From the NCBI GenBank assembly GCA_944329205.1, contig CALVHY010000027.1, forward strand, positions 2,636 through 66,635: DNA of 64,000 nt. The letters are read 5' to 3'. Origin of the DNA: an uncultured Bacilli bacterium (GTDB taxonomy: Bacteria > Bacillota_I > Bacilli_A > RF39 > UBA660). How positions within the stretch are numbered: the stretch's first letter is position 1; every line of letters begins with the position of its first letter. The position numbers and the translations under genes are program-made. Positions 37,340 through 62,515 of this stretch are shown one piece after another. Below the pieces are notes generated by a model. It ran no database searches and was not told the DNA's origin. It saw only the letters and a list, made by a program, of their open reading frames with translations.

Positions 37340-37415
37340 GCTCGTTTAGTTCAGTCGGTAGAGCGCACGGCTGTTAACCGTTAGGTCGTAGGTTCGAGTC
37401 CTACAACGAGCGCCA
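37340..37415 (+). tRNA. tRNA-Asn (anticodon GUU)
   Basis: 76 nt cloverleaf. 7-bp acceptor GCTCGTT/AACGAGC, D-arm GTTC...GAGC, anticodon loop CTGTTAA, T-arm GTAGG-TTCGAGT-CCTAC, discriminator G, encoded CCA. Confidence 0.9.
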
Positions 37416-37427
37416 TTATGTTAATTA

Positions 37428-37457
37428 AGCCCTTATTTTAAGGGTTTTTTTGTTTTA
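37428..37457 (+). terminator. tRNA-Asn terminator
   Basis: AGCCCTTA-ttt-TAAGGGT followed by T7. Confidence 0.6.
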
Positions 37458-37524: not shown

Positions 37525-37929
37525 TTATTCATAGTATCTTGAACAAGCATCACCAGCGGCAGGAGCATCTCCTTCATATTCAACATAGCATTCGCATTCA
37601 TCTCCACCAGGACTAGTAATACATGCGGCACACTTATCATATTCAGCTTCCAAATCCCCAGAGAAATCGCCAACTAATCCAAATATAGCACCAACTAAAG
37701 TAGGAACAAAGAATATAATAATACCAGCTATTGCTCTAATTGCTAAAGACTTAACAGACTTTTTAATTTCATCATCTTTACTAGCTACTACGGCCTTTCC
37801 TAAATCGATCATACCAAATATAATAATTATAATAGGAATTGCAATTTTAAAGACCCATAATATCCAACCAATAATTTGCCAAAGACCAGCTAACTCCGTG
37901 CAAAACTTTGGATCATCCATAATAAACAT
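37525..37929 (-). CDS. small two-TM secreted/membrane protein (candidate atypical pilin or VirB2/TrbC-like subunit)
   Basis: 134 aa. Two hydrophobic helices (LWQIIGWILWVFKIAIPIIIIIFGMI and LAIRAIAGIIIFFVPTLVGAIFGLV), then an acidic Cys-containing tail (CAACITSPGGDECECYVEYEGD). Last gene of the secretion-ATPase operon. No G/xxxxEY Flp motif and no GFxxxE class III signal. Confidence 0.4.
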   Translation of the reverse strand: MFIMDDPKFCTELAGLWQIIGWILWVFKIAIPIIIIIFGMIDLGKAVVASKDDEIKKSVKSLAIRAIAGIIIFFVPTLVGAIFGLVGDFSGDLEAEYDKCAACITSPGGDECECYVEYEGDAPAAGDACSRYYE

Positions 37930-38015
37930 ATAAAATTCCTCTCTTTCTAATCTATATTAATTTTATCTTAAGTTATAAACATTGTCAAGTAATTAAGATC
38001 AATTATGTCAAATAT

Positions 38016-38804
38016 CTATAAATTCATAAGTAGTAAAACAGCTAATATTAATAACACCATAACCCCAATACCTGTTGTTATTAGCATTCGCATTGTTTTA
38101 CTTTCCATTTTATCCAAACGATCTTTATACTTCGTTTCTCTTGCTTTTTGTTGTAAATTGGAAATTGTTCTTGAAAAAGCAAGTAATTGTTCTTGTTTCC
38201 GCTCTTGTCTACCTAAACTAAGCCGATAGAGCAATCTCATCATTCGCATTGAATCTCTTACTGGATATTTTCTTGCAAAATCCATATAAGGTTCAATTGT
38301 ATCATCACCTGCATTAATCGCATTAATTAATTCTTTTAATCCATCTTTAAATATATCAGGAGCATCTTCTAATGATTTACCAATTGCTACCGGTACAGTA
38401 TAATGTTGAATTAATATTTCCAAACCTTTTAAATAATAAGGAAGCATTGTATCTATTTCATGTAAATGTCTTTTATAATAATTTTTAAGATTGATATAAT
38501 CAAGTTTAAAAAAGACAAAACCAATTACAATACAAATTAAAGCATAAACATAAGACATACTTGAAATAAGTAAACAAAAGACCAATACCATAACAATTAA
38601 AGCATTTCTAATTCTTTTATTAAAAAGCAAATCCGGATTGACTGTATCTCCATATTTAGCTTTTACATAAAAATCATAATCACTTTCTTTTAATTTCCGC
38701 AAATACATTTCATTATCGGCAATTAATTTACCAATACTTATCTTTCCACTATAAGTTAATATAAAGAAAATAATCACCGCAATAACAGCTATTTCTATTT
38801 GCAT
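38016..38804 (-). CDS. TadC-like membrane protein (single T2SSF-type domain)
   Basis: 262 aa. N-terminal TM, two TM at about residues 65-100, cytoplasmic helical domain, C-terminal TM. Topology and size match TadB/TadC rather than two-domain GspF/ComGB. Confidence 0.5.
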   Translation of the reverse strand: MQIEIAVIAVIIFFILTYSGKISIGKLIADNEMYLRKLKESDYDFYVKAKYGDTVNPDLLFNKRIRNALIVMVLVFCLLISSMSYVYALICIVIGFVFFKLDYINLKNYYKRHLHEIDTMLPYYLKGLEILIQHYTVPVAIGKSLEDAPDIFKDGLKELINAINAGDDTIEPYMDFARKYPVRDSMRMMRLLYRLSLGRQERKQEQLLAFSRTISNLQQKARETKYKDRLDKMESKTMRMLITTGIGVMVLLILAVLLLMNL

Positions 38805-38805
38805 A

Positions 38806-39702
38806 TTACTCTACCCCCACATTCTCATTATAATATTTCTCTCCTGAGAGTAAAAAGTAACTATTAATAATAATTATACCATGCAAAATAATATGTACAT
38901 ACCATAAATTTAAAAGCCGTAAATAACTATCTTTACCTAGTAAAACCTGCATAACTAAAACTAGCAAAAATAATACTAAAGCAAAAGTAATGAACTTTGT
39001 ATGAAATTGTTTTCTATCCATTTGATCACGATATACTCCCTCAACCAAAGAATCAATATCCATACTCATATTTTCCAAAGACTCTCCTGAATCTTTAGCA
39101 CCCTCTTTAGTAATTTGTAAAAATAGTTGATGCATATTTTTTACCATATAATAAGGATATTTTTGGTTAAAGTACTCAATAGATTCATCAATCGTTCCAT
39201 TTTGATAAGACATGTTAATCATTGTCTTTACATCTTCTAAAACAGGATCCTCAAGTATTCCTGAATCTCTTACCCCCTCTAATGATTTAACAAAACTTTG
39301 CGTCGTATTAAATTCCATTATAACATTAGTTGTATATATTTGAATTTGTTCAAATATATATTCACTATACAATCTTTTACTACGTAAAAAAGCTAAATAA
39401 GGAATAAAAGCCACTGCAATAATCACATAAATAATAACCACAATCAAGCTATAAAAGTATAAATACGCTATAGCTGCCGCTAAGCCCCCAATAACAACTA
39501 TTTGCAAGGTATAATCTTTTACGGTATAATCTTGTTTTAATTCTTTCATTTTCGCACTTATTGTTTTATAACTATAAGGCGCATACTTTTCATATATAAC
39601 CCCAAATTGGGCCTTAGCAAACTTATAAAAGGTTTCCGTCCCATCATTTTTTCGGTATATAATAATAAACATCGCAATTAAAAATATAATTACAAATTCC
39701 AC
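38806..39702 (-). CDS. TadB-like membrane protein (single T2SSF-type domain)
   Basis: 298 aa with the same topology as its neighbour. Immediately downstream of the secretion ATPase gene. Confidence 0.5.
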   Translation of the reverse strand: MEFVIIFLIAMFIIIYRKNDGTETFYKFAKAQFGVIYEKYAPYSYKTISAKMKELKQDYTVKDYTLQIVVIGGLAAAIAYLYFYSLIVVIIYVIIAVAFIPYLAFLRSKRLYSEYIFEQIQIYTTNVIMEFNTTQSFVKSLEGVRDSGILEDPVLEDVKTMINMSYQNGTIDESIEYFNQKYPYYMVKNMHQLFLQITKEGAKDSGESLENMSMDIDSLVEGVYRDQMDRKQFHTKFITFALVLFLLVLVMQVLLGKDSYLRLLNLWYVHIILHGIIIINSYFLLSGEKYYNENVGVE

Positions 39703-39717
39703 TTGCCTAACCTCCTT

Positions 39718-40806
39718 TTATAAAGTCTCGATTGTATCTTCTGCTTTATTATTTAAATGGAACAAATCTTCATCCAAAATAACTCCTTGAATAGCTAAAT
39801 AACTTCTTAAATATTTCGTCGGATTATTCAAAGTAAATTTCCCATCTAATGTTTTTTGATAAATGGTATTTACTTGAGGTTTATTATTTTCATCTACATA
39901 AAATTCACAAATCTCCATAATTTCTCTTTGAAAACGTCCTAATTTTTCACTCATATATCCTTTTACATAAATACCTATTTGCACATAACGATGAATAGTT
40001 GTAATAAACTGTTCGACATCAATATTAGATTCAATCAAACTATACATTCGCATCGGTATTAAAGCTGCCCTATCCGAGTGAATAGTTGATATAATATGAT
40101 GTCCTGAAGAAATAGAATTACGTACTGCCATAACGGCCTCAGCACTTCTAACCTCACTTAATAATATCCAAATAGGATTTTGTCTCATACAAGTAACCAA
40201 AACTTCTGAATAAGAAGCAATGTTATTTGTTTTCATTGCTACAATATCCCGATGGGGAAAAATTCTATCTAAGTGTAACTCTAACGTATCTTCAATCGTA
40301 ATAATTTTTTCATTTTCTTTAGTTGCACTAGCTAAATACTTAACGAGCTCAGTTTTACCAGAACCAGTTTCTCCACTAACAATAATATTAGCATGTCCCT
40401 GAACGCAATTTAAGAGAAAATCGAGTAAATCCGCACTGACATATTCTTCTTTAATTAACTTATCACGATTAAGTCGAATCTTCGCTGGCGTTTTTCTAAT
40501 AACTAAAGCAATTCCATTTGTCGCAATTGAATCATGAATAAAATTAAGCCGTAACTCTGTTGATTCGGCATCTAAAAAAGGATGTGCCATATTGAATGTT
40601 TTTCCCATGACATTAGAACACTGAAAAGCTAATTTTTCGACTAAAGCATTATTTATTTCTGGCCTTTCAACCCGATAAACACCTTTAGATAAACTCTTTA
40701 ACCAAAGCTGCCCCCCATTAGTATATGATATATCCGTAATATCATCTATATCAATAAATTCTCTTAAAGGTCCAAAGTCAATTTGCGAAAATATAGCATC
40801 ATTCAT
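39718..40806 (-). CDS. secretion-system ATPase of the CpaF/TadA/VirB11 family
   Basis: Walker A GETGSGKT, Asp box IITIEDTLEL, Walker B IWILLSEVR, His box GHHIISTIHS. 362 aa. Confidence 0.8.
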   Translation of the reverse strand: MNDAIFSQIDFGPLREFIDIDDITDISYTNGGQLWLKSLSKGVYRVERPEINNALVEKLAFQCSNVMGKTFNMAHPFLDAESTELRLNFIHDSIATNGIALVIRKTPAKIRLNRDKLIKEEYVSADLLDFLLNCVQGHANIIVSGETGSGKTELVKYLASATKENEKIITIEDTLELHLDRIFPHRDIVAMKTNNIASYSEVLVTCMRQNPIWILLSEVRSAEAVMAVRNSISSGHHIISTIHSDRAALIPMRMYSLIESNIDVEQFITTIHRYVQIGIYVKGYMSEKLGRFQREIMEICEFYVDENNKPQVNTIYQKTLDGKFTLNNPTKYLRSYLAIQGVILDEDLFHLNNKAEDTIETL

Positions 40807-40844
40807 ATAAGCACCTCCTTTTCTATTCTTATTCTTTAATTATT

Positions 40845-41660
40845 TCATTCCGTAGTTGTTGTTGTACTAACTGTACTATCAGGGATCTGTTGCGCGTAGT
40901 ATTCAATTTCGTTTCGCAAGTATTCACTTGAAACTGAAGTTTCTCCAGGGTTATTCGTATAACTTGCATTTCTCGGTACTGGTATTAATTCAAGGCCACT
41001 AATATATGTTGCCACACTAAGTAATTGGAATAAATTATCTGGTACCGCAAATAATAATTCCGCTGGCGTAGCTGCTTCACTTGTTAAAAACACACTATTA
41101 CCTTGACTATCGCGAACATCAAGTATTTCGATACTTTCAATTAATTTTCCAAATATAATACTATTACTCCGACTATTCATCTTAACATATAAATCAATAT
41201 AATCTCCTGGATACATTGAATTACCATAAGTCGTATGAATATTTACGGACATTGAAAACGCAGTATAACCATCCGGCATATTTTCCAGTGGATTATTTGG
41301 TGCCGAACTACAAGAAACGACTTGTTCTGAATAGAAAAATGCCCCTTCTGGTACACTAGTACCATAAGTTACACATTTCGGATCAGACGTATTGATTAAA
41401 TCACTTTGATTAACAATCAAATTAGCTCGAGATGAAACAAAACTTCTCAACACCTCGGTTTGATCAATTGCCTCTTGGGTAATTTCTGAAGTTGCCGTAA
41501 TCGTTTGTCTTGCATAAGGAATGGATACGGTATCAATTGCTTGATCAACCCGATAATTATACCCAACATACAAAACAACAACCCCTAATAACACACCAAG
41601 TATAGTAACAGTATTCTTATTTGATAAGAATCTTTTAATCGTTGTTACAATATTTCCCAT
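40845..41660 (-). CDS. membrane-anchored protein, possibly CpaB/RcpC-like (SAF-domain)
   Basis: N-terminal TM (VTILGVLLGVVVLYVGY), then a beta-rich domain beginning VSIPYARQTITATSEITQEAIDQTEV, reminiscent of CpaB SAF domains. Immediately upstream of the ATPase. Weak call. Confidence 0.3.
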   Translation of the reverse strand: MGNIVTTIKRFLSNKNTVTILGVLLGVVVLYVGYNYRVDQAIDTVSIPYARQTITATSEITQEAIDQTEVLRSFVSSRANLIVNQSDLINTSDPKCVTYGTSVPEGAFFYSEQVVSCSSAPNNPLENMPDGYTAFSMSVNIHTTYGNSMYPGDYIDLYVKMNSRSNSIIFGKLIESIEILDVRDSQGNSVFLTSEAATPAELLFAVPDNLFQLLSVATYISGLELIPVPRNASYTNNPGETSVSSEYLRNEIEYYAQQIPDSTVSTTTTTE

Positions 41661-41674
41661 TTTATCCTACCTTT

Positions 41675-42481
41675 CTAAACGGCGCTCCAAAAACTAGCAC
41701 CGGTGCTAGAAGCACTTCTTATTCTATTATAACAAGCATTATCTTGATAATGCCACCACTCTGAAGCTAAATCAGTTAAGCCTGCATCATTCATCATATA
41801 ATTACTAAGCTTTTGCGCTCCTTCACTATTAAGCATTCCTGTTGAATAATTACTCGCCGTCTTACTAACTGCCGGACTATAATACTTAATCGCTTCGGTA
41901 CTTAACTCATGCATTGCTGATGGCATGCTATACTCACTACCAGTATTATCGCCATCACCAGCAGTGATATTATTATCTTCACCGGTATTATCACCATCAC
42001 CAGCAGTAGTATTATTATCTTCACCAGTACCAGTATTTCCATCATTATCTTCACCGGCACCATTATTACTATCACCAACTTCATCTGCAAAGATTTGAAT
42101 AATCGCATCTATTCTTGTAATCGTATCATAATCTCCCGCTGATATAAAGTTTGTGCCACTATTTGATCTAACCTCAACACTTACTTTTGGTGGAGCTTCA
42201 TATATATCATAGAAATTAACTTCATAAGTATCTGTTGTTCCCATTACTTCGGCTGTCATTCTAATGAAAACTTCCATAAATTTTTCTTTATTCATTTTTA
42301 TTTCGTTGTAATCTCGATAATAAGCATAATCTACCGCTTCTAACATTGATGCTTCCACAATTTCTCTTATCGCATAATTATCCTGGGTAGTGTTAGTTGT
42401 AATGCCTTGCACTGAGATCATCAAACCTATTATCGCAACACCCATTACAACTAACCAATAACCCCAATATGAACTTTGCAT
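41675..42481 (-). CDS. N-terminally anchored protein with acidic Gly/Asp/Asn tandem repeats (TadE/pseudopilin-like?)
   Basis: N-terminal hydrophobic segment (YWLVVMGVAIIGLMISV). Central repeats GEDNNTTAGDGDNTGEDNNITAGDGDNTG encoded by about 45-nt tandem DNA repeats (about 41940-42075). Confidence 0.3.
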   Translation of the reverse strand: MQSSYWGYWLVVMGVAIIGLMISVQGITTNTTQDNYAIREIVEASMLEAVDYAYYRDYNEIKMNKEKFMEVFIRMTAEVMGTTDTYEVNFYDIYEAPPKVSVEVRSNSGTNFISAGDYDTITRIDAIIQIFADEVGDSNNGAGEDNDGNTGTGEDNNTTAGDGDNTGEDNNITAGDGDNTGSEYSMPSAMHELSTEAIKYYSPAVSKTASNYSTGMLNSEGAQKLSNYMMNDAGLTDLASEWWHYQDNACYNRIRSASSTGASFWSAV

Positions 42482-42500
42482 AATTAATTACTCCCCTTTC

Positions 42501-45500
42501 CTACTTCCATGAAGGACCTATCATATTTTGTTCAGAAATACCACTAGTCCATAATTCGAAGTATTCGGTATTATTATTACTTTCGGTCCGGTAATTACGA
42601 TTCATAATTAAACTACGATTATTAACAATTTCCGAATTATTTATAAATACTTGATTATTATAAGTAATTGTTCCATCAATTAAATCACTAATAAAGTTAC
42701 TGTAACAAGCTATTTCATCATAATCCCCGATCGTATAACAAGAAAGTGTTGCATTTGAATATCCGCCGCGATTATTTTTTTCCGCCTCATCATTATACTC
42801 TCTTATAGCTCTTGCGGTACTTGGTGTAATCGTAACACTTAAAATTGGATCTTCGGCATAAATACTATCACCAGCATTTTGAATTTGTTCAATAGTTGTC
42901 TGAGCCTTAGCATTTACATCTCGATTCCAGTTATATGATTTTGTACCATTAGGGAACAAGTTAGTAAGGGAAACAACTCTTTCAATCAACGATGAGCCAG
43001 CCTGATTATCATAAATACAACCTGCACCAATACAATCTGCTACACAATCAGATCCATCACAATCATAATTACAATTTGGCCCCACACAATTAGCCGTACA
43101 ATCATCACCATTACAACTATCCCAATCACACACGATTGTATAATTCTCTTCTATACCCATATTAACTAAATACGCACACATATACTGAACGGTACCATTT
43201 TCATCTACAAATTCGGCATAGTCTTCCTCATTAATAACCGCCGTATCGCCACCAATTAATCGACCTAAACTACCATTTCGATCATAATATTCCCCAAGAT
43301 TCGTAATATTTACTGTATATTCATAAATACCTCTTCTTGTACTCAAACTAACTGGCAATTTATTTTCCAAAGCCGTTGCATTTTCGTTATTTTCCCCTTC
43401 ATCACGATCAACTATTTCACCACTTGGATAAACATTATAAAACAATGTCGATGGCACATAATTAACATTAATCGTTGAAGTTACTTTTTTATATGAAGCA
43501 TTTGATATTTCTTCTCGTTTAAATGAACAACCACTCTCATCACAATAAACATAATCTATTAAAGCTGTACTTTCATCAGTTGAACCACTACAACTATCAT
43601 AACCATTATTTATTGTTCCGTAAGTATAATTTCCATTAGCCAGTGATCCATTACAATACCACTCGGTTGTATTATCACTCGTAATGGTATCATCCATTTC
43701 CCCATGATTATTATAATGATCCGCCAAATAATCCTCGGCATAATCATAATAAATAGTTGGATCATAGTTAATATCCGTTGTCCAATTAGAACATCCATTA
43801 TAATCACTAATTATTTGATTGTAATTATCTATCGCCGTTTGTAAAGCACTTCTTGCCGTACTTAAATCTCCGCCATAGCGATTATTATAATCTTGAGTAT
43901 AAGATACACTACTACATGAACCACTATAACCAGAACAATTACAACTGCTACATGAGCCACTACCAAACGATAAAGTTTCATTATGCGTGGAGGCAACTCC
44001 ACTATAACTATAAGTTACATAACTAAATGTTTTTTGCGCTGTACTCCATGAACAACTTCTTCTTCCACTTGAACGGCATACTCTAGTACAACTACTACCA
44101 CTACTAGTAGCATTATTATTCTCATCATCTTCTGTACAAATTTCCTCTGAATAACAACCTGTACTATATGAACATGATCTTGAACTTACGTTGGTAAAAC
44201 TTGCACTATCTAGCGCCCTTAATCTTGCATAAGTATTATAAGCATCAACTAAAGCTCTTTGTGCTTGTTCAATATCAGCTTCATATAATTCCCGATCAAT
44301 CGTATTTGTATAACATGTCTTTGTCCCACTAACCGCTGCACTAAACGTAAAGTATCTACCGGCATTAACAAGTTTAGCTGTTGGCATGTTCATAATATAA
44401 TCTTCTTTACAAGATACTACACAATATTTATTTTTCTGTAGAGTATAAGAATTTTCCTCATCATCACTTACTCCGGCAGCATTTTCATATCCTGTCGTTG
44501 CATCCCTATAACCATCAATTTGATTTACAAAGCAAATTTTTGCTTCCTCAGGACCAGTTATTGATACTGGATGGTTATCAACTGTTGAAATAATCAAATT
44601 ATTTTCCGCATCACAACACTCAAATGCCGTTACGGAAGTTGTACAACCAACACTACAATTTTCATAATAAGCTTGGCATGCCTCATCATCACCTAAAACA
44701 TTACATTCAATTTCTAATTCGGCACACTCACCGCAATTAGCATCCAATAACTCTTGACAAGCATCCCCTTCTAAATTGCCCGTTTCTTCAGCTTCAATCG
44801 TACAAGCTTCAATCAAATCATCACAATCACATACATCAATTAAACTAACCGAACCTGTTAATTCGCCCGTTACGTCTTGACTAACCGCCTCTGATACTTC
44901 ATCAACACTTAAAAACCGTTGATATTGTGTTCCCCAAGCATCAGCATATATATTATCCCAAACAATACCTACATAATTGCTGTATTTACCATTCGCTGAA
45001 GTATCACTATAAGTATAACTCATCGTATAAGACATTGGTTGTTGCCCACAATTAAGCTTATTATAAGTGTTTTGATATCCAGCGTTTACATTTTCATATC
45101 CTGTAAATTCTATTACAATTTCCACGGTTATCTCATCTGGAATACTATCTAAAACTCTTAAAATATTATCCCCATAATTAAAATCATAAGCATCTGTATA
45201 AGATATACCATTAACGGTAATTTCCACAATTCTTGGCTGTTCATTTACACCTAAAACATCCAAACTTTGATCATATGTAAGATCATTTATAACAAAAGAA
45301 GCATTTCCATCGTTTGTAAAATTACGTAAAGTCAAAGTTCTTTTTATTTGTAAATTTACACTATCACCAATTGCTGTTGACTCATTATTAATTGCAACTT
45401 GTTCCGTTAAAACATTATCATCAATACTAGCTCCCCCATCATTATCCATATACTCTGCCGCATCTGCTAAAGCTTGTGCATATAGTTGTTTAGCTTTATT

Positions 45501-46238
45501 AAGTATTGCTTCTGCTCGCTCATCATTTGTATTTGTAGAACTATACCAAACTGGTTGGAATGAATACAATGAATAATCTTCTAAAACTGATAAATCCAAA
45601 GTATATTGACTTAAAGCATCATAACTAGCTCTAATTCCTGAATCACCTGTAATCCAATTATAAGCTTGACCAAAATAAGTTTCATATAGTAAAGACCAAC
45701 CGTTTTTATCATAACCCCAAGTTGCTACAATTGATCTAACTGCAATACTTGTTGCTAAATAATCATCAGACGTATGATCATTTCTCTCACCGTTAACTAA
45801 TGCACTTAAAATAGCCATATCAAAAGCCTTAACGCCTGGTTCTGGATCGCTTAGTAAAAATCTTTTGGCAAATACTGTATCAAATCCTCCTGTAGCATCG
45901 GAATCTAAACAATACATCGCAAGACCATAACGATCGTAATGAGAATAAAGAGATGCATAGCTTGTCCAAGAATAATTATTGCCGTCATTTACATCTCCAC
46001 TTCCTGAATATTGTCTAATTAATAAATTATAATTAGAAAGATTAGAACGACTAAATCCCTTTGAAACAGTTGTACTTACCCCTGCCACATAATTATGTAA
46101 CTCTGCATTACCTGTCGCTGTTATCGTCCCATAAGTAGCACCATATCTTGTCTCGGCTGCTTCAACTTTTAAACTAAAACCTAAAGTGATAACTAAAGCA
46201 ATGATAATATAACTGACTTTTTTTAACATATTTTTCAT
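42501..46238 (-). CDS. giant secreted Cys-rich protein (1245 aa), candidate adhesin/tip protein
   Basis: Cleavable signal peptide (IIIALVITLGFSLKVEA). Three dense Cys clusters (about residues 470-550, 690-790, 1050-1100). YCLD motif near residue 110. No C-terminal anchor. Confidence 0.6.
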   Translation of the reverse strand: MKNMLKKVSYIIIALVITLGFSLKVEAAETRYGATYGTITATGNAELHNYVAGVSTTVSKGFSRSNLSNYNLLIRQYSGSGDVNDGNNYSWTSYASLYSHYDRYGLAMYCLDSDATGGFDTVFAKRFLLSDPEPGVKAFDMAILSALVNGERNDHTSDDYLATSIAVRSIVATWGYDKNGWSLLYETYFGQAYNWITGDSGIRASYDALSQYTLDLSVLEDYSLYSFQPVWYSSTNTNDERAEAILNKAKQLYAQALADAAEYMDNDGGASIDDNVLTEQVAINNESTAIGDSVNLQIKRTLTLRNFTNDGNASFVINDLTYDQSLDVLGVNEQPRIVEITVNGISYTDAYDFNYGDNILRVLDSIPDEITVEIVIEFTGYENVNAGYQNTYNKLNCGQQPMSYTMSYTYSDTSANGKYSNYVGIVWDNIYADAWGTQYQRFLSVDEVSEAVSQDVTGELTGSVSLIDVCDCDDLIEACTIEAEETGNLEGDACQELLDANCGECAELEIECNVLGDDEACQAYYENCSVGCTTSVTAFECCDAENNLIISTVDNHPVSITGPEEAKICFVNQIDGYRDATTGYENAAGVSDDEENSYTLQKNKYCVVSCKEDYIMNMPTAKLVNAGRYFTFSAAVSGTKTCYTNTIDRELYEADIEQAQRALVDAYNTYARLRALDSASFTNVSSRSCSYSTGCYSEEICTEDDENNNATSSGSSCTRVCRSSGRRSCSWSTAQKTFSYVTYSYSGVASTHNETLSFGSGSCSSCNCSGYSGSCSSVSYTQDYNNRYGGDLSTARSALQTAIDNYNQIISDYNGCSNWTTDINYDPTIYYDYAEDYLADHYNNHGEMDDTITSDNTTEWYCNGSLANGNYTYGTINNGYDSCSGSTDESTALIDYVYCDESGCSFKREEISNASYKKVTSTINVNYVPSTLFYNVYPSGEIVDRDEGENNENATALENKLPVSLSTRRGIYEYTVNITNLGEYYDRNGSLGRLIGGDTAVINEEDYAEFVDENGTVQYMCAYLVNMGIEENYTIVCDWDSCNGDDCTANCVGPNCNYDCDGSDCVADCIGAGCIYDNQAGSSLIERVVSLTNLFPNGTKSYNWNRDVNAKAQTTIEQIQNAGDSIYAEDPILSVTITPSTARAIREYNDEAEKNNRGGYSNATLSCYTIGDYDEIACYSNFISDLIDGTITYNNQVFINNSEIVNNRSLIMNRNYRTESNNNTEYFELWTSGISEQNMIGPSWK

Positions 46239-46993
46239 TCTACCTTACTCCTTCGCTTTCTTATTATCACATAAACAGTCAATCCCCCAATTACGACAAT
46301 TGCTACACCTACACCTATAACTATTGCTAGATTATCTTGAATAAAATCAAAGAAGCCTTCTTCTTCCGAATCTATTGGTTCTTCCACTTCTTCGCCACTA
46401 TCATCAATTTGACCTGCATTATATCGCTCGATCAATTCGACAAACCTACCGAAATCAACACTTGGCACTGATAAAAAAGTATTACATAAATAAAAGTCTT
46501 CATTACCATCACATAATCTATATTGGCTATATTCATTATACATTGGTGTTGTCAAATATAGTGTATACAATTCGGTATTAGCACAATTAGTATTACTAGA
46601 ACTATAAACGGTAATAGTAAAATTAGTAATCGCCAAAATATTAGTCCAATCCAAACTAATCGTTCCATTATCACTATCCTGGTAAGTATAAGTTTGAACT
46701 TGATCATCAACATCATTTTCTACTGTAATGTATAAATCTTCTGTTAAATTACTAATATAAATACGAAAGAAACTATAATATGCCACATACTCCTCTAACT
46801 CCTCTTCCGTTAAGCCATCGGGAGCTGAATACTCACCTTCCAGCTCTTCCCTCATCACTTCATAGCTCGCTCTAACATTAGCTGCCAAACTATTAAGGGT
46901 ATTTGTTTCGCTTGCATCACATACTGCATAAACTACATTACTGTTTACCAAAAAAAGTAACAGGGCCAAAATTAACGCATTAATTTTTTTCAT
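46235..46993 (-). CDS. secreted protein with C-terminal TM anchor and basic tail
   Basis: Start placed at MKKINALILALLLFLVNSNVVYA (signal peptide). C-terminus LAIVIGVGVAIVVIGGLTVYVII-RKRRSKVE. ATGA overlap with the giant protein gene. Confidence 0.5.
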   Translation of the reverse strand: MKKINALILALLLFLVNSNVVYAVCDASETNTLNSLAANVRASYEVMREELEGEYSAPDGLTEEELEEYVAYYSFFRIYISNLTEDLYITVENDVDDQVQTYTYQDSDNGTISLDWTNILAITNFTITVYSSSNTNCANTELYTLYLTTPMYNEYSQYRLCDGNEDFYLCNTFLSVPSVDFGRFVELIERYNAGQIDDSGEEVEEPIDSEEEGFFDFIQDNLAIVIGVGVAIVVIGGLTVYVIIRKRRSKVE

Positions 46994-47018
46994 AGTATAC
47001 ACCAACCTCATATTCAAA

Positions 47019-47047
47019 ATTATAACATGTAACTTCCTTTTTTTCAA
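47019..47047 (-). promoter_or_regulatory. sigma-A consensus promoter TTGAAA-17-TATAAT driving the 47-37.5 kb operon
   Basis: Minus strand TTGAAA (47047-47042), 17-nt spacer, TATAAT (47024-47019). About 25-nt leader with GAGGTTGGTG RBS before ATG 46993. Confidence 0.55.
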
Positions 47048-47081
47048 CATAAATAAAAGAAAAAAGAAGCCAAAAAGCCCC

Positions 47082-50183: not shown

Positions 50184-50873
50184 CTATATTTTATAAACTT
50201 TATTAGCTTTTCTACTAAATAAATATATTACTCCGATTACTACTAATCCCCCTAAAATAGCAATATAAGGAACTACACTACCTGTCTCACTATTTGGAAT
50301 ATCATTAGGATCACTTACATTACTACAAACACTTTGATATTCTGCCTCAGTTATAGAATTACCATTATCATCAAAGTAATAACCAGGAATATCTACACTA
50401 CAATCTAAACTAAGTGGTGACACATTAAGCATACAACCTGTATCAGCAGTATCAGTTGTAACTACACTTATAGTTATACTAGATGAAGCACTAGAAACAC
50501 CACTAGGTTCTAATAACACATAAGTTCCTGCCTCAGCTGTCTGCGTATCCGCTACCAAATAACTTGAACTAGTACTATTTACACTAACACTATCAATACT
50601 TACACTATTAGGAACTAATAAAAAGTAAATATACCCATTAGTATTACTTACATCAAAAGTAATACTCCAAGTCTTAATACCTGCATCCTCATCCGTATAA
50701 GTCCACGTATAATCCCCAGCCGCGACCGTTCCATACTGGCCCATTGAAATGGCCTCATCACTTACATAAACTCCATCCCCATCATTATCATTAAAATCTA
50801 CGGCCCAAACATCAGTTGGCACCAAAAAAATTGTTGTAAGAAAAATTCCTAGTATCAAAATTAACTTTTTCAT
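50184..50873 (-). CDS. secreted surface protein with C-terminal sorting-signal-like tail
   Basis: Signal peptide. C-terminus DIPNSETGS-VVPYIAILGGLVVIGVIYLF-SRKANKVYKI (motif, hydrophobic stretch, basic tail). Divergent neighbour of the sortase-B fusion gene. Confidence 0.5.
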   Translation of the reverse strand: MKKLILILGIFLTTIFLVPTDVWAVDFNDNDGDGVYVSDEAISMGQYGTVAAGDYTWTYTDEDAGIKTWSITFDVSNTNGYIYFLLVPNSVSIDSVSVNSTSSSYLVADTQTAEAGTYVLLEPSGVSSASSSITISVVTTDTADTGCMLNVSPLSLDCSVDIPGYYFDDNGNSITEAEYQSVCSNVSDPNDIPNSETGSVVPYIAILGGLVVIGVIYLFSRKANKVYKI

Positions 50874-50959: not shown

Positions 50960-52606
50960 ATGTCAATCTATGATATGATATTAATGGTGAATAGTGTGAA
51001 AAAGATATTAATTAGCCTTTATAACAACTCTATTTTCTTTTCTTATAAAACTAATAATAGTTCTATTAGTAATGATTTAATTAATACAAACATCATTAGC
51101 AATAACGAACTTATTTTTAGCGATATTTATATTTCGGAAAACTCCAAAATTATTGCCTCCTTTTTAAAAGAATTAACAATCCAATACAATATTTCTAAAG
51201 CAATAATTAGTAAAATCGACTTAAGTCCCTTAGTATTAAGTTTACTTAAAAAAGCAACCAACATAACTGCGGTAGAAATAAAAGAAGATGAGACTTTAAC
51301 CTATAGTATTTGCGAAGCTTTAATTGAATTAAATCATATCAAAAGTCTTAATTGTTACAATCTCCAACCCTTTATGATTGAACTATTAGACAAATTCGGT
51401 ATTACCTGCACCTCTCGTTGTGAAATTCTTTATTTAAGCAATTTTATGGAAACTAACAATCTTTTACGTTATTCAAATATCTATTATAAAACGACAATTC
51501 GCATAACCTTCCCCTTATCTTTAGAAGATTTAAAAGATCTTGAAGACTTCTTCAAAATCAACAAATACTTAAAAGTTATTCATATAAACAAATTGATTAA
51601 CAATGAACTCGAAAACTTAATCAATCTTCTCATAAAATTTAATCGTCATAATTTAAAAATTGTTATTCATGAAAATATAACTGATGAAAAAACCGCCGAA
51701 TATCTACGAACTAAAAACAAAACTTACAAAAAGAAATATAAAATTTATTTATCATTAGAATACACCCAAGAATATTTAGATCGCAATATCTTTCGGCAAG
51801 CTATAACCAACACCTTAAAAATATGTGGCCTCATCGTCAGTAGTCTTGTTATTTTAGTTGTAACCTACATTGGAATATCTAATTTTATTGCTTTAAAACA
51901 AGTTGATGCTATCAAACAAGATCTTGCCGAAGTAATAGAAGTAACTGATCCTACCGAAATTATTGAACAAAAAAACGAAGAAAACAAAGAAAATGCTTTG
52001 ATAGAACAAACTCCTATTGAAGAAATCAAAATGATTACCAACCAAGAACTAGCCTCCTTATTGACAGTAAATGAAGATGTTGTCGGTGAATTAGTGGTCA
52101 ATAACACCAATGTTGATTATCCTGTTGTTCAAGCAAACGATAACGATTACTATTTAGATCATAATATCAACAAAGAAAGTAATGCTAACGGCTGGATTTA
52201 CCTTGATTTTCGTAATGACGCAATGAACCTTGACAAAAACAACATTATATATGGTCATAACATGTATTATAGTGGTGTTATGTTTGGAACTCTTTATAAA
52301 ACAGCTACTTCCAGTTGGTATACTAATCCTGATAACCAAATTATTACTTACAATACTTTATATGAAAACATGGAATTTCAAATTTTCTCTATTTATCGCG
52401 TTCCAGAAACAAATGATTATCTCAAAGTCTTTTTTGACGATGATGCTGATTTCTTAGAATTTATTGATATGATTACTTCCCGCAGCATTTATGATTTTAA
52501 TGTCCCTATACAAGCTGATGATAAAATCATAACTTTATCAACATGTAGCAATAATGGAACGAAAAGATTAGTAATCCATGCTGTTTTAAAAAATAATACA
52601 GAGTAA
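50960..52606 (+). CDS. sortase B-family transpeptidase fused to a large N-terminal LRR-like cytoplasmic domain
   Basis: C-terminal roughly 190 aa: DYPVVQANDNDYYLDHNINKESNANGWIYLDFRN...IYGHNM...ITLSTCS...RLVIHAVL (His, Cys, Arg catalytic triad in class B order). TM at about residues 290-315. N-terminal roughly 280 aa is Leu/Ile/Asn-rich and repeat-like. Confidence 0.65.
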   Translation: MSIYDMILMVNSVKKILISLYNNSIFFSYKTNNSSISNDLINTNIISNNELIFSDIYISENSKIIASFLKELTIQYNISKAIISKIDLSPLVLSLLKKATNITAVEIKEDETLTYSICEALIELNHIKSLNCYNLQPFMIELLDKFGITCTSRCEILYLSNFMETNNLLRYSNIYYKTTIRITFPLSLEDLKDLEDFFKINKYLKVIHINKLINNELENLINLLIKFNRHNLKIVIHENITDEKTAEYLRTKNKTYKKKYKIYLSLEYTQEYLDRNIFRQAITNTLKICGLIVSSLVILVVTYIGISNFIALKQVDAIKQDLAEVIEVTDPTEIIEQKNEENKENALIEQTPIEEIKMITNQELASLLTVNEDVVGELVVNNTNVDYPVVQANDNDYYLDHNINKESNANGWIYLDFRNDAMNLDKNNIIYGHNMYYSGVMFGTLYKTATSSWYTNPDNQIITYNTLYENMEFQIFSIYRVPETNDYLKVFFDDDADFLEFIDMITSRSIYDFNVPIQADDKIITLSTCSNNGTKRLVIHAVLKNNTE

Positions 52607-57547: not shown

Positions 57548-60500
57548 TTATTTATCCAAACTATTAAAATTGTTTATTAGTTTTACCCGTTTAATTTTAG
57601 AATTCATAATGATATAGCCAAAATCATTTGTAATATCTTCCCGATCTTCTCTCGTAATTTTGGAAATTCGATACAACGATTGATCAGCAATCCCACTACC
57701 AATCCAAATTCCTCTTGTCGTATCCGCTCCTGCTTTAAACCATTCTTCATAAGCAAAATTCTTTAAAGCATCAGGATTATCAACTAAGACAAAGGAAACT
57801 AACCCCATTTGATTATCCTGCTTCATAATCTCATTTAATTTAGCCCGACTATCGTTATTTAACTTGCTAATAAAATCATATGCTCCATATATGATACACA
57901 TAAATTTCTTTTGAATATCTATAACTTTAACATCATATTTATTCTCTTCATATATTTTATATACTTGTTCTATGTAATTAGCTAATTGTAAAACAATATT
58001 ATCATAATCGCGATTAAGTACTCTACCTTCCAAATTACTGTTAACAATTGCTTGTTCAGTTGTATTAACAAATAATATTTCGTAACTTTTCGTATAACTA
58101 ACTTGATCTATTAAAGCATAAATAAAACTTAAAGTATTTTCTAGCTCATATGAACTAACCAAAGTAATAGCGTTTTTCTTCAAATTAAACTTTTCCATTA
58201 AAAGTGTATCTTTATTTACTCCGATAACTACTCTAGCATCATTAGTAAGATCATCTTTAACATATTGGAAATCAACATTTTCTGGTAAAACCGGAATTTT
58301 CTTAAGTTTATATGTTGATTGAGACTTCATCGTTTTACATTTATCAACGATATAACTTGTAACATCATCTAAATCGGTAACATAAGCGGTTTGAAATTCA
58401 TAAATATTACCTTTTCTAAACAAACCTCGACCCTTAAACTTCGCCGGTACTCTTCCCCTTACATTACCTAAAATATTCATATAATCCATCTCACTATTTT
58501 GCTGTAAAGCATAAACTAAAGCAAAATTTTGTCTAGTTCTAAGTCTTATACTATTATCATTACTTGCTGTAATTACAAAAAATATACCATACTTAAACGC
58601 TTCCCTAGAAAGTTGATTTAATTCTTCCACACTCTCTTCATAGTTTTCCATAAAAGATTCAAAATTATTAATAATAACTACATAATTAGGTAAAACTCCC
58701 GCTTTACTTTTAATATAATTATTATAATTTCCCCCATAATTAGCAAATAATTTCTTTCTTTTAATCAATTCTTCATTAAGCATTTTAAATAAATTAACCA
58801 CTTTATCTTGCTCACTTACAAAAGCAATATCGGCAACAAGAGGTGAAGATCTAAACATAGAAAGTGTTTCGGCCCCGAAATCCAAAATATAAAAATTAAC
58901 CTCAGACGCATCATAAGAAACCATGCACGAATAAATAAGGGAAATTAAAAAGTTTTCTTTACCGGAACCAGTAATTCCATAAATAATTGCATTTCCTAGT
59001 TTGCTAAAAGGAACATGTAAAGCATACTGATCTTGATTTTCCGGATCATCATACTCTCCAATAATAGGATTTAAATAGTACGGTGTTTTTACAAAATGAT
59101 ATTTTTCTTTTAAAGCATCAATATAAATCTTACTAGGTATTTTATCAAGCCATAGCCTTCTAATACTTATCTTCTCTTCTAAAGCAACATTACTTAAATA
59201 CCGCACAATATTAGGCAACTCTTCCCCTTCCGCCTGTATTTTTGGGCCATTATCCACATCTTTACTAGAAATTACAAAACCAATATTATTAATAATATTT
59301 ACTGATGTATCCATTTCCTTTTTAAATGTAGCACTGGGAAAGTAATTACCTCCCGCCCAGGCTGATTGACCTAAAGTATATACCTCATCAAAGCCAACTT
59401 GTAAATAAAATCTTCCTACTTTTTTTAAATAAGCTGCATCCGGTTTTTTCAATACTTCATTTGAATCAGCAGTATCCTGAACTTTCAGGCAAACTCTAAA
59501 CCGGGTATTTGACCAAATTTGAGGATCTACCACCCCTCCTGGTTTTTGGGTAGCCAAAATAAGATGGATTCCCAGTGATCTACCAACTCGAGCTGCCGAA
59601 ATAAGCTTATCCATAAACTCGGGTTGTTGTTCTTTCAACTCGGCAAACTCATCACTAATAATAAACAGATGAGAAATAGGCTCTTTACCTAAAAGTTTAC
59701 CTTCTCGCCACAACTTTTGATATTTATAAATATCAATAGTACTTTCATTAGTTATTTTTTTAGCTTCATTAAACTCTCTTTGTCTTCTTTTAATTTCGCT
59801 TTCAATTGAAGCTAAAGACCGATTAAGTTCATTTCCATCCAAGTTAGTAATAGTTCCCGCTAAATGTGGTAAACGATATTTATCATTGCTAAAAGCTCCC
59901 GCTAAACTTCCCCCTTTATAATCAATTAAAATAATTTGAACTTCATAAGGATGATAATTAATCGCTAAGGATAAAATATAAGTTATAATAAACTCTGATT
60001 TTCCAGAACCTGTTGTACCAGCGATTAAACCATGAGGGCCATGATACTTTTCATGCAAATCAAGATTAATAATCTCTTGACTTTTCCCAATGCCTACTGG
60101 AGCTTGCAAAGATAAAATTGGATTACTTTTTTTCCATCTATCCCGGGCATTTAATTGTTCTACCTTGCCCACTTGATACATTTCTAAAAACTGATAAGTA
60201 TCCGGCAAACTAGCTTCCGCTTCGTTCTTAATATCGATTGGTATATTAGCTAGTTCACGAGCACAATTATAAATATCTTCTATGGAAGAAAAATCAATTT
60301 TAAATTTTTGAACATATTCATTAATAATACTACTAAAAATAGCACATTCTTCTTTACTAGCATTAATAAAATTTTTACATTCATTGGGTAAGTTAGATAC
60401 TTTATCCACTAACATTATAAAACTAAAACCCAAATTTTGTTCTTGATCCATTATTGCTTTTATAAAATCATAATTATCAATTGATTTAATTGAATCTGTA

Positions 60501-62149
60501 ATTATAACATAATGGGGACTAAAACGATTTTGTTCTCTTTGGCTTTTTCGTTCATTAAATATTTTTTCTAAAATATAAATAATCTCTCTATAATCATCAT
60601 TTGATGACCCAAAAAAGCGAAAAGATCTATCATTTGACCAACTATGTGGTATCGTCTTAGCATAATCCCAATCCCGTTCATGATCTTTGGATGTAAAAAT
60701 AACTATTTTAACTTCATCATAACTGTACAAACACATAAGTTGCAATATTACCCGATCAATAAAATCTTTAGTTACCACAGCATTTCCGACAATACCGGTT
60801 ATTATATTTAAAAAAAACGAATAAGTAATTGGTACACTTCGAATAATCCGATCTTTCTTTCCTAAATCATAAGCAAGATCCAAAAGATTATCCTCACTCA
60901 AAGAAAAGTGTTCTTCGGGATATTTTATTTCCACTTGCATTGGTACATCGCCAATACCTACCGGTAACGTTAAAAAATCTTCATCAGTAATTCTTCTTTG
61001 CCATAATTTAACGCTATGAGACTTAATTATATCTATACATTCCGAAACAGTAAAATAATTCCCCTTTAAAGCTGCTTTTTGTTCTTCCAAAGCTTTAGCT
61101 ATTTCTCTTTCTTTTTTAGCTAAATAATCTTTATATAAGTTTTGTCTTTTCTTCTCATACATCTTATCAGCAAATCTTTGATAAGCTTTCGTAATTAGTG
61201 GCCAAAGTAAACAACTTGCCAGCATTACCCCACTCATTACTATCGAAGTTATCGAAGAACTAACAGTAGCTTCTCCTCTACTTATGGAATTAAATGTTGA
61301 TAAAAGCATAACTACTGACATCATTGCCATCGTAACCATTGGTCCTACCGTTAAAATGGCAGGCGTTTTATCCGGTTCTTTTTTCGTCGGCGGATTATCA
61401 AGTTTAACTTGAAAAGGCTTAATCGTTTTATAAAAATAAGGCGTCCGATAAAAATAATCCCCACTATTATAAATTGAATCATCACTTAATTCCGCATAAT
61501 CTTCCACATAATTATCTTTAATCGGCGTAATACTAGCATAAAAAGTACTATCAGCGATCAAATTATTAGGATTATTAACTAGCAAATAATCTTTGTCATT
61601 TTTCTTCATCAAAATAATTTTTAGCCCAAACATGAAGATAACATCTCCATATTCCAACCGCTTCTTACTTCTAACTCTCTTTTGATTTATATATACTGAA
61701 GCTAATTTATCATTAACTACCAAATAATAATAATTATCTTCTTTAACTATGGCAAAAGCGTTTTTTACAACTCCCCCAAGTTTATAACAAATATTACTAA
61801 GCCCATCACTTCCTACTATAATAGGTTTACTAAAATCGGTATTATATTCTTTAAAAGAAGTATCATAAACTTGCGAACAATAAATATAATATTTTTCATT
61901 TTTATAATTATTTTTAAATAAATAAAAGCATTCTTCCTTTAATATAGCATAATCTACTCTATTATCTTTATTATCGACAACAAAAGCATCATTATTACTA
62001 ACTAACTTCCAACCCTCACTACTAGCTTCAATATTAATAAGATTGATTCTTCTTCCATTCTCAAAATCTGTAATCCAATAATTACCACTAATATCTTTGG
62101 GCAAAATAACAATATCTAATCTATTTTGTTTAATAATTGTTAATTGCAT
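57548..62149 (-). CDS. essC: Type VII secretion system ATPase EssC/YukB (FtsK-SpoIIIE family)
   Basis: 1533 aa. N-terminal FHA-like domains, two TM (about 255-315), three FtsK/SpoIIIE ATPase domains (for example LIAGTTGSGKSEFIITYILSL, IYGITGSGKENFLISL). Confidence 0.85.
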   Translation of the reverse strand: MQLTIIKQNRLDIVILPKDISGNYWITDFENGRRINLINIEASSEGWKLVSNNDAFVVDNKDNRVDYAILKEECFYLFKNNYKNEKYYIYCSQVYDTSFKEYNTDFSKPIIVGSDGLSNICYKLGGVVKNAFAIVKEDNYYYLVVNDKLASVYINQKRVRSKKRLEYGDVIFMFGLKIILMKKNDKDYLLVNNPNNLIADSTFYASITPIKDNYVEDYAELSDDSIYNSGDYFYRTPYFYKTIKPFQVKLDNPPTKKEPDKTPAILTVGPMVTMAMMSVVMLLSTFNSISRGEATVSSSITSIVMSGVMLASCLLWPLITKAYQRFADKMYEKKRQNLYKDYLAKKEREIAKALEEQKAALKGNYFTVSECIDIIKSHSVKLWQRRITDEDFLTLPVGIGDVPMQVEIKYPEEHFSLSEDNLLDLAYDLGKKDRIIRSVPITYSFFLNIITGIVGNAVVTKDFIDRVILQLMCLYSYDEVKIVIFTSKDHERDWDYAKTIPHSWSNDRSFRFFGSSNDDYREIIYILEKIFNERKSQREQNRFSPHYVIITDSIKSIDNYDFIKAIMDQEQNLGFSFIMLVDKVSNLPNECKNFINASKEECAIFSSIINEYVQKFKIDFSSIEDIYNCARELANIPIDIKNEAEASLPDTYQFLEMYQVGKVEQLNARDRWKKSNPILSLQAPVGIGKSQEIINLDLHEKYHGPHGLIAGTTGSGKSEFIITYILSLAINYHPYEVQIILIDYKGGSLAGAFSNDKYRLPHLAGTITNLDGNELNRSLASIESEIKRRQREFNEAKKITNESTIDIYKYQKLWREGKLLGKEPISHLFIISDEFAELKEQQPEFMDKLISAARVGRSLGIHLILATQKPGGVVDPQIWSNTRFRVCLKVQDTADSNEVLKKPDAAYLKKVGRFYLQVGFDEVYTLGQSAWAGGNYFPSATFKKEMDTSVNIINNIGFVISSKDVDNGPKIQAEGEELPNIVRYLSNVALEEKISIRRLWLDKIPSKIYIDALKEKYHFVKTPYYLNPIIGEYDDPENQDQYALHVPFSKLGNAIIYGITGSGKENFLISLIYSCMVSYDASEVNFYILDFGAETLSMFRSSPLVADIAFVSEQDKVVNLFKMLNEELIKRKKLFANYGGNYNNYIKSKAGVLPNYVVIINNFESFMENYEESVEELNQLSREAFKYGIFFVITASNDNSIRLRTRQNFALVYALQQNSEMDYMNILGNVRGRVPAKFKGRGLFRKGNIYEFQTAYVTDLDDVTSYIVDKCKTMKSQSTYKLKKIPVLPENVDFQYVKDDLTNDARVVIGVNKDTLLMEKFNLKKNAITLVSSYELENTLSFIYALIDQVSYTKSYEILFVNTTEQAIVNSNLEGRVLNRDYDNIVLQLANYIEQVYKIYEENKYDVKVIDIQKKFMCIIYGAYDFISKLNNDSRAKLNEIMKQDNQMGLVSFVLVDNPDALKNFAYEEWFKAGADTTRGIWIGSGIADQSLYRISKITREDREDITNDFGYIIMNSKIKRVKLINNFNSLDK

Positions 62150-62161
62150 ACACTCACCTAC

Positions 62162-62422: not shown

Positions 62423-62515
62423 CCCTTAAAAAAAGTACAATTAAAATATCACACTACCCTCTATAATATCTTAATTATACCATACAATTAGCAAAAATTA
62501 AATGCTTTTTAAATC

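Follow-up and report, generated by a model that had tools for sequence, protein, structure and literature searches.

What the eight-gene operon described here builds, and with what partners, is the question raised by a stretch of 64,000 nucleotides (nt) from an uncultured Bacilli bacterium of the order RF39 (assembly GCA_944329205.1, contig CALVHY010000027.1, positions 2,636 to 66,635); the whole stretch is called the window below. The genes, named g1 to g8 in the order of transcription, encode secreted proteins, a secretion ATPase and several membrane proteins. The initial annotation took them for an atypical and possibly undescribed variant of the Tad-type pilus and adhesin export machinery, placed as an island at a tRNA gene. 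We think it probable, though well short of certain, that the operon is the filament or adhesin assembly module of a chromosomal type IV secretion system (T4SS) of monoderm type (pLS20 or MPF-FATA type), conserved across RF39-type Bacilli and standing here apart from its VirB4/VirB6/VirD4 core. The features of the locus are as follows, with topologies derived from hydropathy (TM, transmembrane segment).

46235..46993, minus strand: g1, 252 amino acids, secreted, with signal peptide, acidic stalk and C-terminal TM anchor
42501..46238, minus strand: g2, 1245 amino acids, secreted, with signal peptide and 45 Cys residues, no anchor
41675..42481, minus strand: g3, DUF5411 module (residues 1-130), acidic tandem repeat (DNA 41939-42029) and the last ~85 residues of an M15 peptidase; one N-terminal TM
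40845..41660, minus strand: g4, CpaB/RcpC-like protein with one N-terminal TM
39718..40806, minus strand: g5, hexameric secretion ATPase of the CpaF/VirB11 family, 362 amino acids
38806..39702, minus strand: g6, polytopic platform protein, TadB-like, equivalent of pLS20 p38
38016..38804, minus strand: g7, polytopic platform protein, paralogue of g6, TadC-like, equivalent of pLS20 p39
37525..37929, minus strand: g8, two-TM relative of VirB2/TrbC-like T4SS pilins, with a charged loop between the TMs and a Cys-rich C-terminal tail
47019..47047, minus strand: operon promoter, TTGAAA-17-TATAAT, 11/12 matches, with a TG-extended -10
37960..37988, minus strand: internal g8 promoter, TTGACA-17-TAAAAT, within the g7-g8 gap
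37340-37415, plus strand: tRNA-Asn(GTT), 109 nt from the g8 stop codon
37427-37447, plus strand: terminator-like hairpin of tRNA-Asn; the boundary region 37340..37447 is kept beside g8 across the clade of the window

The operon and its sister loci

The eight open reading frames (ORFs) lie on the minus strand where they had first been called, and all of them are intact. The stop codon of g1 overlaps the start of g2 in a 4-nt overlap, and the gaps that follow measure 19 nt (g2-g3), 14 (g3-g4), 38 (g4-g5), 15 (g5-g6), 1 (g6-g7) and 86 (g7-g8), so the description of the genes as tightly packed is accurate. Relatives of g7 were sought in a species-level scan (one genome per species), and 80 genome loci were fetched for comparison. 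At least 563 species-level genomes contain a g7 relative, all of those listed being uncultured metagenome-assembled genomes (MAGs) of Bacilli or Tenericutes type (RF39-like), and copies of the ATPase and of g6 that are 95-100% identical occur in the records 'Mycoplasma sp. CAG:776', 'uncultured Tenericutes' and 'Bacilli', which are gut MAGs of the RF39 kind. The g1-g7 cassette is collinear in nearly all of the 80 loci.

In most loci outside the clade of the window, g7 is followed by two Flp-like genes, two TadE-like genes, a gene in the position of tadZ and one to several paralogues of g8. Beyond g8 these sister loci continue with genes for a VirB6/TrbL-like protein, a VirB3-like protein, VirB4, a wall hydrolase, a lipoprotein and the VirD4 coupling protein. 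VirB4 lies ~8 kb downstream of g7, VirD4 matches T4SS-DNA_transf (3e-54), the VirB6-like protein matches TrbL_4 (4e-4), and the hydrolase combines M23 and lysozyme matches. A scan of metagenomes with RF39 VirB4 revealed two layouts. In the contiguous layout, seen in at least 12 of the metagenome loci examined, the genes run from the g5-g7 end of the cassette (the upstream limit of the fetched DNA) through to VirD4; the split layout (~30 loci, many of them human-gut metagenome records) is limited to the T4SS core, which begins with a small secreted protein and ends with VirD4. On the right, contiguous and split loci alike are bordered by the same housekeeping genes (rhodanese, DedA/VTT, RmuC). 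No marker shared by the split T4SS-core loci and the clade of the window was found. A relaxase was seen neither by inspection nor among the flanking and intracluster ORFs scanned in two loci (L148 and L101), of which not every ORF was scanned.

The same gene order is found in conjugative plasmids. Genes 34-45 of the pLS20-family conjugation operon (Tie, p36, VirB11-like p37, p38, p39, p40, p45) are arranged like the RF39 cluster, and in both a VirB11-like ATPase is followed by two polytopic membrane proteins (p37-p39 in pLS20). Plasmid pZB18 and the Paenibacillus larvae plasmids also keep this order, with a large secreted adhesin, a small protein with an N-terminal TM, VirB11, two membrane proteins, a protein of ~120 amino acids with an N-terminal TM, and TrbC/VirB2. 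The pLS20 gene table names the Tie adhesin (p34) and VirB11 (p37), and lists p36 and p38-p45 as 'unknown'; the TadE-like proteins of RF39 show a profile match of 87.6% to a p40 homologue, and the ATPase is 31-33% identical to its pLS20-type counterparts. Because the sister loci run on into VirB6, VirB3, VirB4, hydrolase and VirD4, and because their order parallels pLS20 genes 34-45, we interpret the operon as a T4SS module, and the description as an undescribed Tad variant is too narrow. Comparison of sequences establishes the family assignments of g3, g4 and g5, that of g8 at the level of its homologues as a group, and the collinearity with sister loci and pLS20-type plasmids. Unlike pLS20, the RF39 system is chromosomal, vertically inherited across an order and without a visible relaxase, and it has in addition a CpaB-like protein, a TadZ-like protein and Flp-like pilins; the window module is moreover detached from its T4SS core.

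Likeness to the Tad/Flp systems (Caulobacter Cpa, Aggregatibacter Tad and the Sodalis plasmid locus L089) extends to the CpaF-type motor, the CpaB/RcpC-like protein and a paralogous platform pair directly after the ATPase, and in sister lineages to Flp-like and TadE-like proteins and a receiver plus degenerate ParA protein in the TadZ position. The RF39 system departs from them in its VirB2-like subunit, DUF5411 protein, g1 and g2, in the T4SS linkage of its sister lineages, in the failure of g6 and g7 to reach T2SSF thresholds, and in having an M[KR]E[AS]xxG leader instead of G/XXXXEY, with no prepilin peptidase found. The leader is common to the Flp-like, TadE-like and DUF5411 proteins. In the Flp-like proteins of sister loci (74-87 amino acids) it reads MKEATGELN, which is not a G/XXXXEY leader, and is followed by a hydrophobic stretch and a Cys-rich tail. 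The protein in the TadZ position (331 amino acids) consists of a receiver-like N-terminus and a degenerate ParA-like half, and its match to TadZ is weak (E 0.017). On these comparisons the RF39 system may be regarded as a hybrid of a Tad-like assembly machine and a monoderm-type T4SS, fixed in the chromosome of an uncultured order.

The absence of Flp, TadV and TadZ noted at the outset holds for the operon and for the whole window: there is no Flp prepilin with a G/XXXXEY motif in either, no TadZ/CpaE ParA-type protein in the window, and no A24 prepilin peptidase (TadV/CpaA) in the window or in 86 RF39 loci searched by jackhmmer with two A24 seeds. Flp-like, TadE-like and TadZ-like genes are likewise missing from the window and from every locus of its clade (within ±10 kb), and no wall hydrolase of a T4SS is present in the window. 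The gene at 62516-63679, at the right end of the window, matched T4SS hydrolases weakly; the match is due to an NlpC/P60 domain common to both, and the gene belongs to a type VII secretion-like locus and not to a T4SS. In at least 30 distant RF39 loci (L004, L005, L043 and at least 27 others) a divergent Rce1-like/CPBP intramembrane protease and a metallophosphoesterase flank g1. A CPBP protease also lies upstream of the pZB18 adhesin (L088, 2590-3036). The window has no such gene, whose product might be the leader peptidase that is otherwise missing, or else a factor of the immunity type.

Products of the eight genes

The ATPase g5 is the most conserved member of the operon, with 74-95% identity in nearly all complete copies among the 80 loci. 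It matches T2SSE (2e-26), and its closest solved relatives in PDB are CpaF (5e-16), then FlaI and VirB11, in agreement with its first assignment to the CpaF/VirB11 family. The NCBIfam models for VirB11, TadA and TrbB gave values of 1e-30 to 1e-27, every one below its cut-off, and the nearest plasmid matches are from Firmicutes plasmids at 30-33% identity. RF39 bacteria are predicted to sporulate. A sporulation channel of the SpoIIIA type was considered and rejected, as the ATPase hits shown included no SpoIIIAA model and linkage to the T4SS speaks against such a channel.

Both g6 and g7 have an N-terminal TM, a TM pair, a cytoplasmic domain of ~120 amino acids and one or more C-terminal TMs, and they are 63-93% identical to their relatives. 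Assignment to T2SSF by direct comparison was rejected: no T2SSF match was obtained in Pfam, NCBIfam or PDB profile searches, own profiles included, or with Pfam on distant g6/g7 relatives (287 clusters from 1.84 billion sequences), and tblastn against plasmids gave E values of 0.04-3 only. Bridging homologues were found in Priestia and P. larvae. The g6 profile aligns with a Priestia protein annotated as type II secretion system F family (hhalign 98.5%, E 1.6e-15, 254 columns) and with a 252-amino-acid protein adjoining VirB11 on a P. larvae plasmid (91%), and g7 aligns with a second Priestia membrane protein (hhalign 96.8%). The Priestia bridging protein matches Pfam T2SSF at 3.4e-5, one bit under threshold, and the bridging proteins match Sodalis TadB (1.3e-5 for Priestia, 1e-8 for P. 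larvae). With these proteins merged in, the g6 and g7 profiles match each other (96%, E 4e-9), showing at the profile level that g6 and g7 are paralogous, as TadB and TadC are. The earlier description of g6 and g7 as TadB/TadC-like thus stands as far as two platform-type membrane proteins are concerned; their putative T2SSF identity has no direct support and runs through intermediate homologues only.

The CpaB-like nature of g4 was also borne out. The window copy reaches RcpC at 2.4e-5, which is under the gathering score, and TIGR03177 at 3.9e-5, and RcpC was matched by all 30 of the 30 family members tested (best 3e-7). The protein matches a Priestia SAF protein (2e-16) and is ~35-80% identical to its relatives. 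Two CpaB-like g4 genes stand in tandem in many loci (L026, L027, L032, L034, L036-L041 and others).

The product of g3 had been described as an anchored protein with acidic repeats. It has one N-terminal TM and an acidic Gly/Asp/Asn repeat, and could further be identified as a DUF5411 protein, since residues 1-130 match PF17424 with 164 bits (2e-48), above the gathering score. In homologues the DUF5411 N-terminal module consists of one TM helix and ~110 amino acids and is fused to varied C-terminal domains (M15, VanY, C39-like peptidase, Big_2, fn3, Flg_new) or to none, and DUF5411 may be a pilin-like carrier for exchangeable enzymes and binding domains. Compared with its relative P0121, the window copy has lost the linker, the SH3b-like region and the M15 catalytic core, which are replaced by a 42-nt tandem repeat; identity to relatives is ~40-88%. 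The AlphaFold2 model (confidence score pLDDT 68) consists of a 47-residue N-terminal helix, two short helices and a three-stranded sheet, and a Foldseek search of the DUF5411 model against PDB gave no match. In contrast to the modular type IV pilins, such as Streptococcus sanguinis PilB (PDB 7b7p), g3 is without a class III signal peptide with Glu5, its fold match is weak, and no processing peptidase was identified for it. One locus (L005, 11407-12663) has a 418-amino-acid protein with a SipW/TasA-type signal peptide between its DUF5411 and CpaB-like genes, and in the lineage of that locus the cassette is followed by McrBC-like defence genes (DUF2357) where pilin genes would be.

The small membrane protein g8 had been called a two-TM pilin-like protein. 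Two TMs are present; judged across the family, the kinship is with VirB2-type T4SS pilins and not with Tad pilins. The window copy alone matches T4SS_pilin (PF18895) at E 0.06 (13.8 bits against a gathering score of 26.6), and across the family PF18895 is the top match by a wide margin, found in 38 of 40 members at E<=0.1 (best 3e-6). T4SS_CagC was matched by 6 of the 40, and the hhalign match to the pZB18 TrbC protein is weak (E 0.01). Paralogues of g8 form tandem arrays of up to five or six copies (L130, 2311-6056; L149, 149-5333; L133, L137 and L031), and some are fused behind large secreted domains.

At the exposed end of the operon, g1 and g2 have the features first ascribed to them, g1 as a secreted protein with a signal peptide and a C-terminal TM anchor by hydropathy, and g2 as a giant Cys-rich secreted protein. 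There is no family match for g1 in Pfam, NCBIfam or PHROG; it is invariably first in the cassette among relatives, with 22-59% identity to the window copy. The Cys residues of g2 are grouped in three clusters. This protein, as judged from its alignments, is evolving fast (24-47% identity over full-length copies, up to 62% over fragments), and it matches nothing in Pfam, nor does its profile find a match in PDB. Its conserved motifs are an N-terminal YC[LIM]D (C110), ATSIAVR (R168) and an extreme C-terminal GP[AS]WK. The last of these (window 42501-42515) is near-invariant across the aligned g2 homologues despite their 24-47% overall identity, and might serve for recognition or attachment. Two loci (L020, 619-2200; L035, 327-2500) have a further g2-g3 pair ahead of g1.

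We considered whether g2 could be a thioester-domain (TED) adhesin like Tie of pLS20. The YCLD motif is near-invariant, and ATSIAVR follows it 56 amino acids further on, which is the spacing of FCLQ...ATQILVW in the pZB18 adhesin. At the position of the thioester Gln, g2 proteins have S, D, N, E, H, T, L or V, never Gln, and Arg takes the place of Trp; Pfam TED was matched by 1 of 33 homologues (0.0055). The likeness is one of motifs, with the Gln missing, and the candidate was rejected. In addition to lacking the thioester Gln, g2 differs from the pLS20 adhesin in having no CnaB domains.

Promoters, boundaries and inheritance

The TTGAAA-17-TATAAT promoter ahead of g1 was confirmed, with 11 of 12 matches and a TG before the -10. 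Shuffled sequence contains promoter-like sites at least as often (58 expected against 56 found), so this promoter is counted for its position: the terminator-like hairpin of the upstream gene (47083-47064) lies just before it, and it is closely followed by a GAGG ribosome-binding site with the ATG at 46993. The internal promoter of g8 is conserved, its -35, -10 and ribosome-binding site being invariant across 16 species-level relatives and its spacer variable. Two conserved TTGACA boxes ~19 nt apart precede g8, both in the window (37960-38016) and in the aligned intergenic sequences of 15 relatives. The second box is the -35, and the first could be a regulator site.

The operon does end about 110 bp from tRNA-Asn (109 nt measured from the g8 stop codon to tRNA-Asn(GTT)), and it had been suggested that it was inserted there as a genomic island. 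The order lysS, membrane protein, g1 to g8, tRNA-Asn, addB, addA is kept in every clade locus long enough to show it, and in all of these the operon occupies the lysS-tRNA-Asn interval. The operon holds its position between lysS and tRNA-Asn-addB in 12-14 species-level relatives, across which AddB is 46-63% identical, AddA 58-68%, LysS 79-92%, the ATPase 91-95% and the platform proteins 80-93%. The host genome has 30% G+C, and G+C is flat across the operon. Because the position is kept among relatives this far apart in AddB and the G+C content is flat, we reject the island idea; no integrase was seen in the cluster or in the flanks inspected. A phage origin was likewise rejected, since searches of phage families (PHROG) gave nothing beyond generic ATPase matches. 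The tRNA-Asn gene lies beside the operon in all clade members, and in about two-thirds of them it points the other way relative to the operon (L001, L010 and L019 versus L012, L014, L015, L021, L022 and L024).

Across the 80 loci, identity to the window falls from the ATPase through the platform, CpaB-like and DUF5411 proteins to g1 and finally g2. Such a gradient is expected where a conserved motor is combined with exposed parts that evolve fast. The alignments show that the parts in the cytoplasm and membrane are under strong purifying selection and that the exposed ones change quickly, and by the same measure the motor is at least as conserved as lysyl-tRNA synthetase.

Two further groups of genes in the window are recorded here. 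A type VII secretion-like locus occupies 57548-63993 on the minus strand and was assigned by eye, with one BLAST match to hydrolase domains:

57548-62149, minus strand: 1533-amino-acid EssC-like FtsK/SpoIIIE ATPase (by eye)
62162-62422, minus strand: 86-amino-acid YukD/EsaB-like protein (by eye)
62516-63679, minus strand: 387-amino-acid protein with helical N-terminus and NlpC/P60-type C-terminus (by eye and by BLAST to hydrolase domains)
63703-63993, minus strand: 96-amino-acid helical protein (by eye)

Between lysS and these genes, a 229-amino-acid secreted, C-terminally anchored Ser/Thr-rich protein (50184-50873, minus strand) adjoins a 548-amino-acid protein (50960-52606, plus strand) that has a sortase-like TLSTC motif at its C-terminus.

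What the module may assemble

If the operon is a T4SS assembly module, its working can be pictured as follows. ATP hydrolysis by the g5 hexamer would move the g6/g7 membrane platform, and the CpaB-like g4 would form a ring or conduit across the cell wall, which most RF39 species are predicted to have. The machine would pull small hydrophobic subunits from the membrane and stack them into a short filament or pseudopilus. Its subunits would be the VirB2-like g8, separately and probably highly expressed, and the pilin-like g3, joined in sister lineages by the Flp-like and TadE-like proteins. The filament would display or position the translationally coupled pair of g1, as anchor, and g2, as giant, presenting a fast-diversifying surface for contact with other cells or a host. 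In lineages with the full cluster, this contact would serve T4SS-mediated transfer, as the Tie adhesin of pLS20 or the thin pilus of R64 does in liquid mating, and the window module would work either with a T4SS core encoded elsewhere or alone.

Several observations weigh against this reading. VirB4, VirB6 and VirD4 are absent from the window, and in known T4SSs the assembly of VirB2 needs VirB4 and VirB6, not a platform of the TadB/TadC type. No prepilin peptidase was found in the window or within ±10 kb in any RF39 locus, g6 and g7 have no direct T2SSF match, and the structure model of g6 (pLDDT 57) is unusable. Finally, the subunit role of g8 and g3 is a prediction from sequence, and we infer the role of g1 and g2 solely from their position, topology and evolutionary rate.

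An outside but serious chance belongs to a self-contained Tad (type IVc) pilus for host attachment, functionally unrelated to any T4SS, whose pilin and peptidase genes would lie elsewhere, like tadV in some Gram-positives. CpaF-like, CpaB-like and platform-like proteins are all present, sister lineages have Flp-like, TadE-like and TadZ-like genes beside g7, and in the clade of the window no T4SS adjoins the module, which has a promoter and a boundary to itself. Loci with DUF5411, CpaF and T2SSF proteins and without T4SS genes also exist. One, on a Priestia plasmid, encodes an Ig-like protein, DUF5411, SAF, a ParA-like (TadZ-like) protein, CpaF, T2SSF, a second membrane protein and DUF4320, together with what is probably a prepilin peptidase; others are operons of Clostridia (PMC9523054). 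However, in many RF39 lineages the module is physically continuous with the T4SS core (the contiguous loci above), the one small subunit kept beside the motor, with a conserved promoter, is VirB2-like and not Flp-like, the Flp-like, TadE-like and TadZ-like genes were not found in the window or the clade loci, and no A24 peptidase was found nearby.

Another explanation, which we consider quite unlikely, is that of a type II-like secretion or surface-display machine in which a short DUF5411 pseudopilus moves cargo (fused peptidases, Ig domains, g1 and g2) through the wall, as an exporter and not an adhesive fibre. Miller et al. (2022; PMC9523054) predicted a DUF5411/CpaF operon of Roseburia, Ruminococcus and Eubacterium to be secretion-related. 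Compared by description, it resembles the RF39 operon in having eight to nine genes, with CpaF, a PilC/GspF-like protein, DUF5411, a large surface protein and otherwise unannotated products; it differs in its clostridial host and internalin-like large protein, and its authors report neither a link to a T4SS nor a VirB2-like gene nor modular cargo on DUF5411. The fusion of DUF5411 to variable enzymes and binding domains would suit an exporter, as would g1 and g2, which stand first in the operon and have ordinary Sec signal peptides. Those same Sec signals mean that no dedicated membrane exporter is needed for g1 and g2, and the enzymatic cargo of g3 has been deleted in the window, yet the machine is under strong constraint; there is also no evidence for substrate recognition elements. 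Very improbable, and largely refuted, is the view that the operon is what is left of an integrative conjugative element, or of a T4SS island, decaying at tRNA-Asn. The adjoining tRNA gene, the loss of the T4SS core, Flp, TadE and TadZ genes of the sister loci and the truncated peptidase domain of g3 would fit such a remnant. Against it stand eight intact reading frames, an ATPase (91-95%) and platform proteins (80-93%) that stay this similar where AddB is ~50% identical, a constant position in 12-14 species with flat G+C, the lack of an integrase or relaxase in the cluster or inspected flanks, and phage-family matches of the generic ATPase kind only.

The reading as a T4SS module has its closest chromosomal parallel in the Patescibacteria, which have chromosomal, relaxase-less T4SSs of monoderm type with arrays of PF18895 pilins (Quinonero-Coronel et al. 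2025, PMC12102498). The RF39 system shares with them a small-genome uncultured host, a chromosomal monoderm-type T4SS, PF18895-type pilins that often occur in arrays and no relaxase seen nearby; it differs in its Bacilli host and in having a VirB11/CpaF motor, a Tad-like platform and a CpaB-like protein, which are unreported in that study. The same authors state that Gram-positive T4SS classes have no VirB2 homologues. The RF39 cluster suggests that VirB2-type pilins are possible in monoderm T4SSs, and it bears on the origin of the T4SS pilins of Patescibacteria. In the literature that could be searched, nothing was found on pili or secretion in RF39. For the pLS20-type conjugation operons, the comparison suggests that the VirB11-p38-p39-p40 block may be a Tad-like assembly module.

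Bacteria of the uncultured order RF39 are common in the gut and have reduced genomes. A surface machine that is found in at least 563 species-level genomes, with a motor conserved like lysyl-tRNA synthetase, is likely to be central to the life of these bacteria. A bolder conjecture, which we put forward as unlikely, is that RF39 bacteria have domesticated a T4SS, in which no relaxase has so far been detected, and joined it to a Tad-like motor; they would need it for contact with other cells, much as the epibiotic growth of Saccharibacteria depends on a T4SS and pili. The conjecture further holds that in the clade of the window a CpaF/TadBC-type motor assembles VirB2-type and DUF5411 modular pilins. 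If this were true, the RF39 filament type would cross the accepted boundary between type IV filaments and T4SS pili. As the window has the module split from the T4SS core, it would be a natural setting for learning how the module acts by itself.

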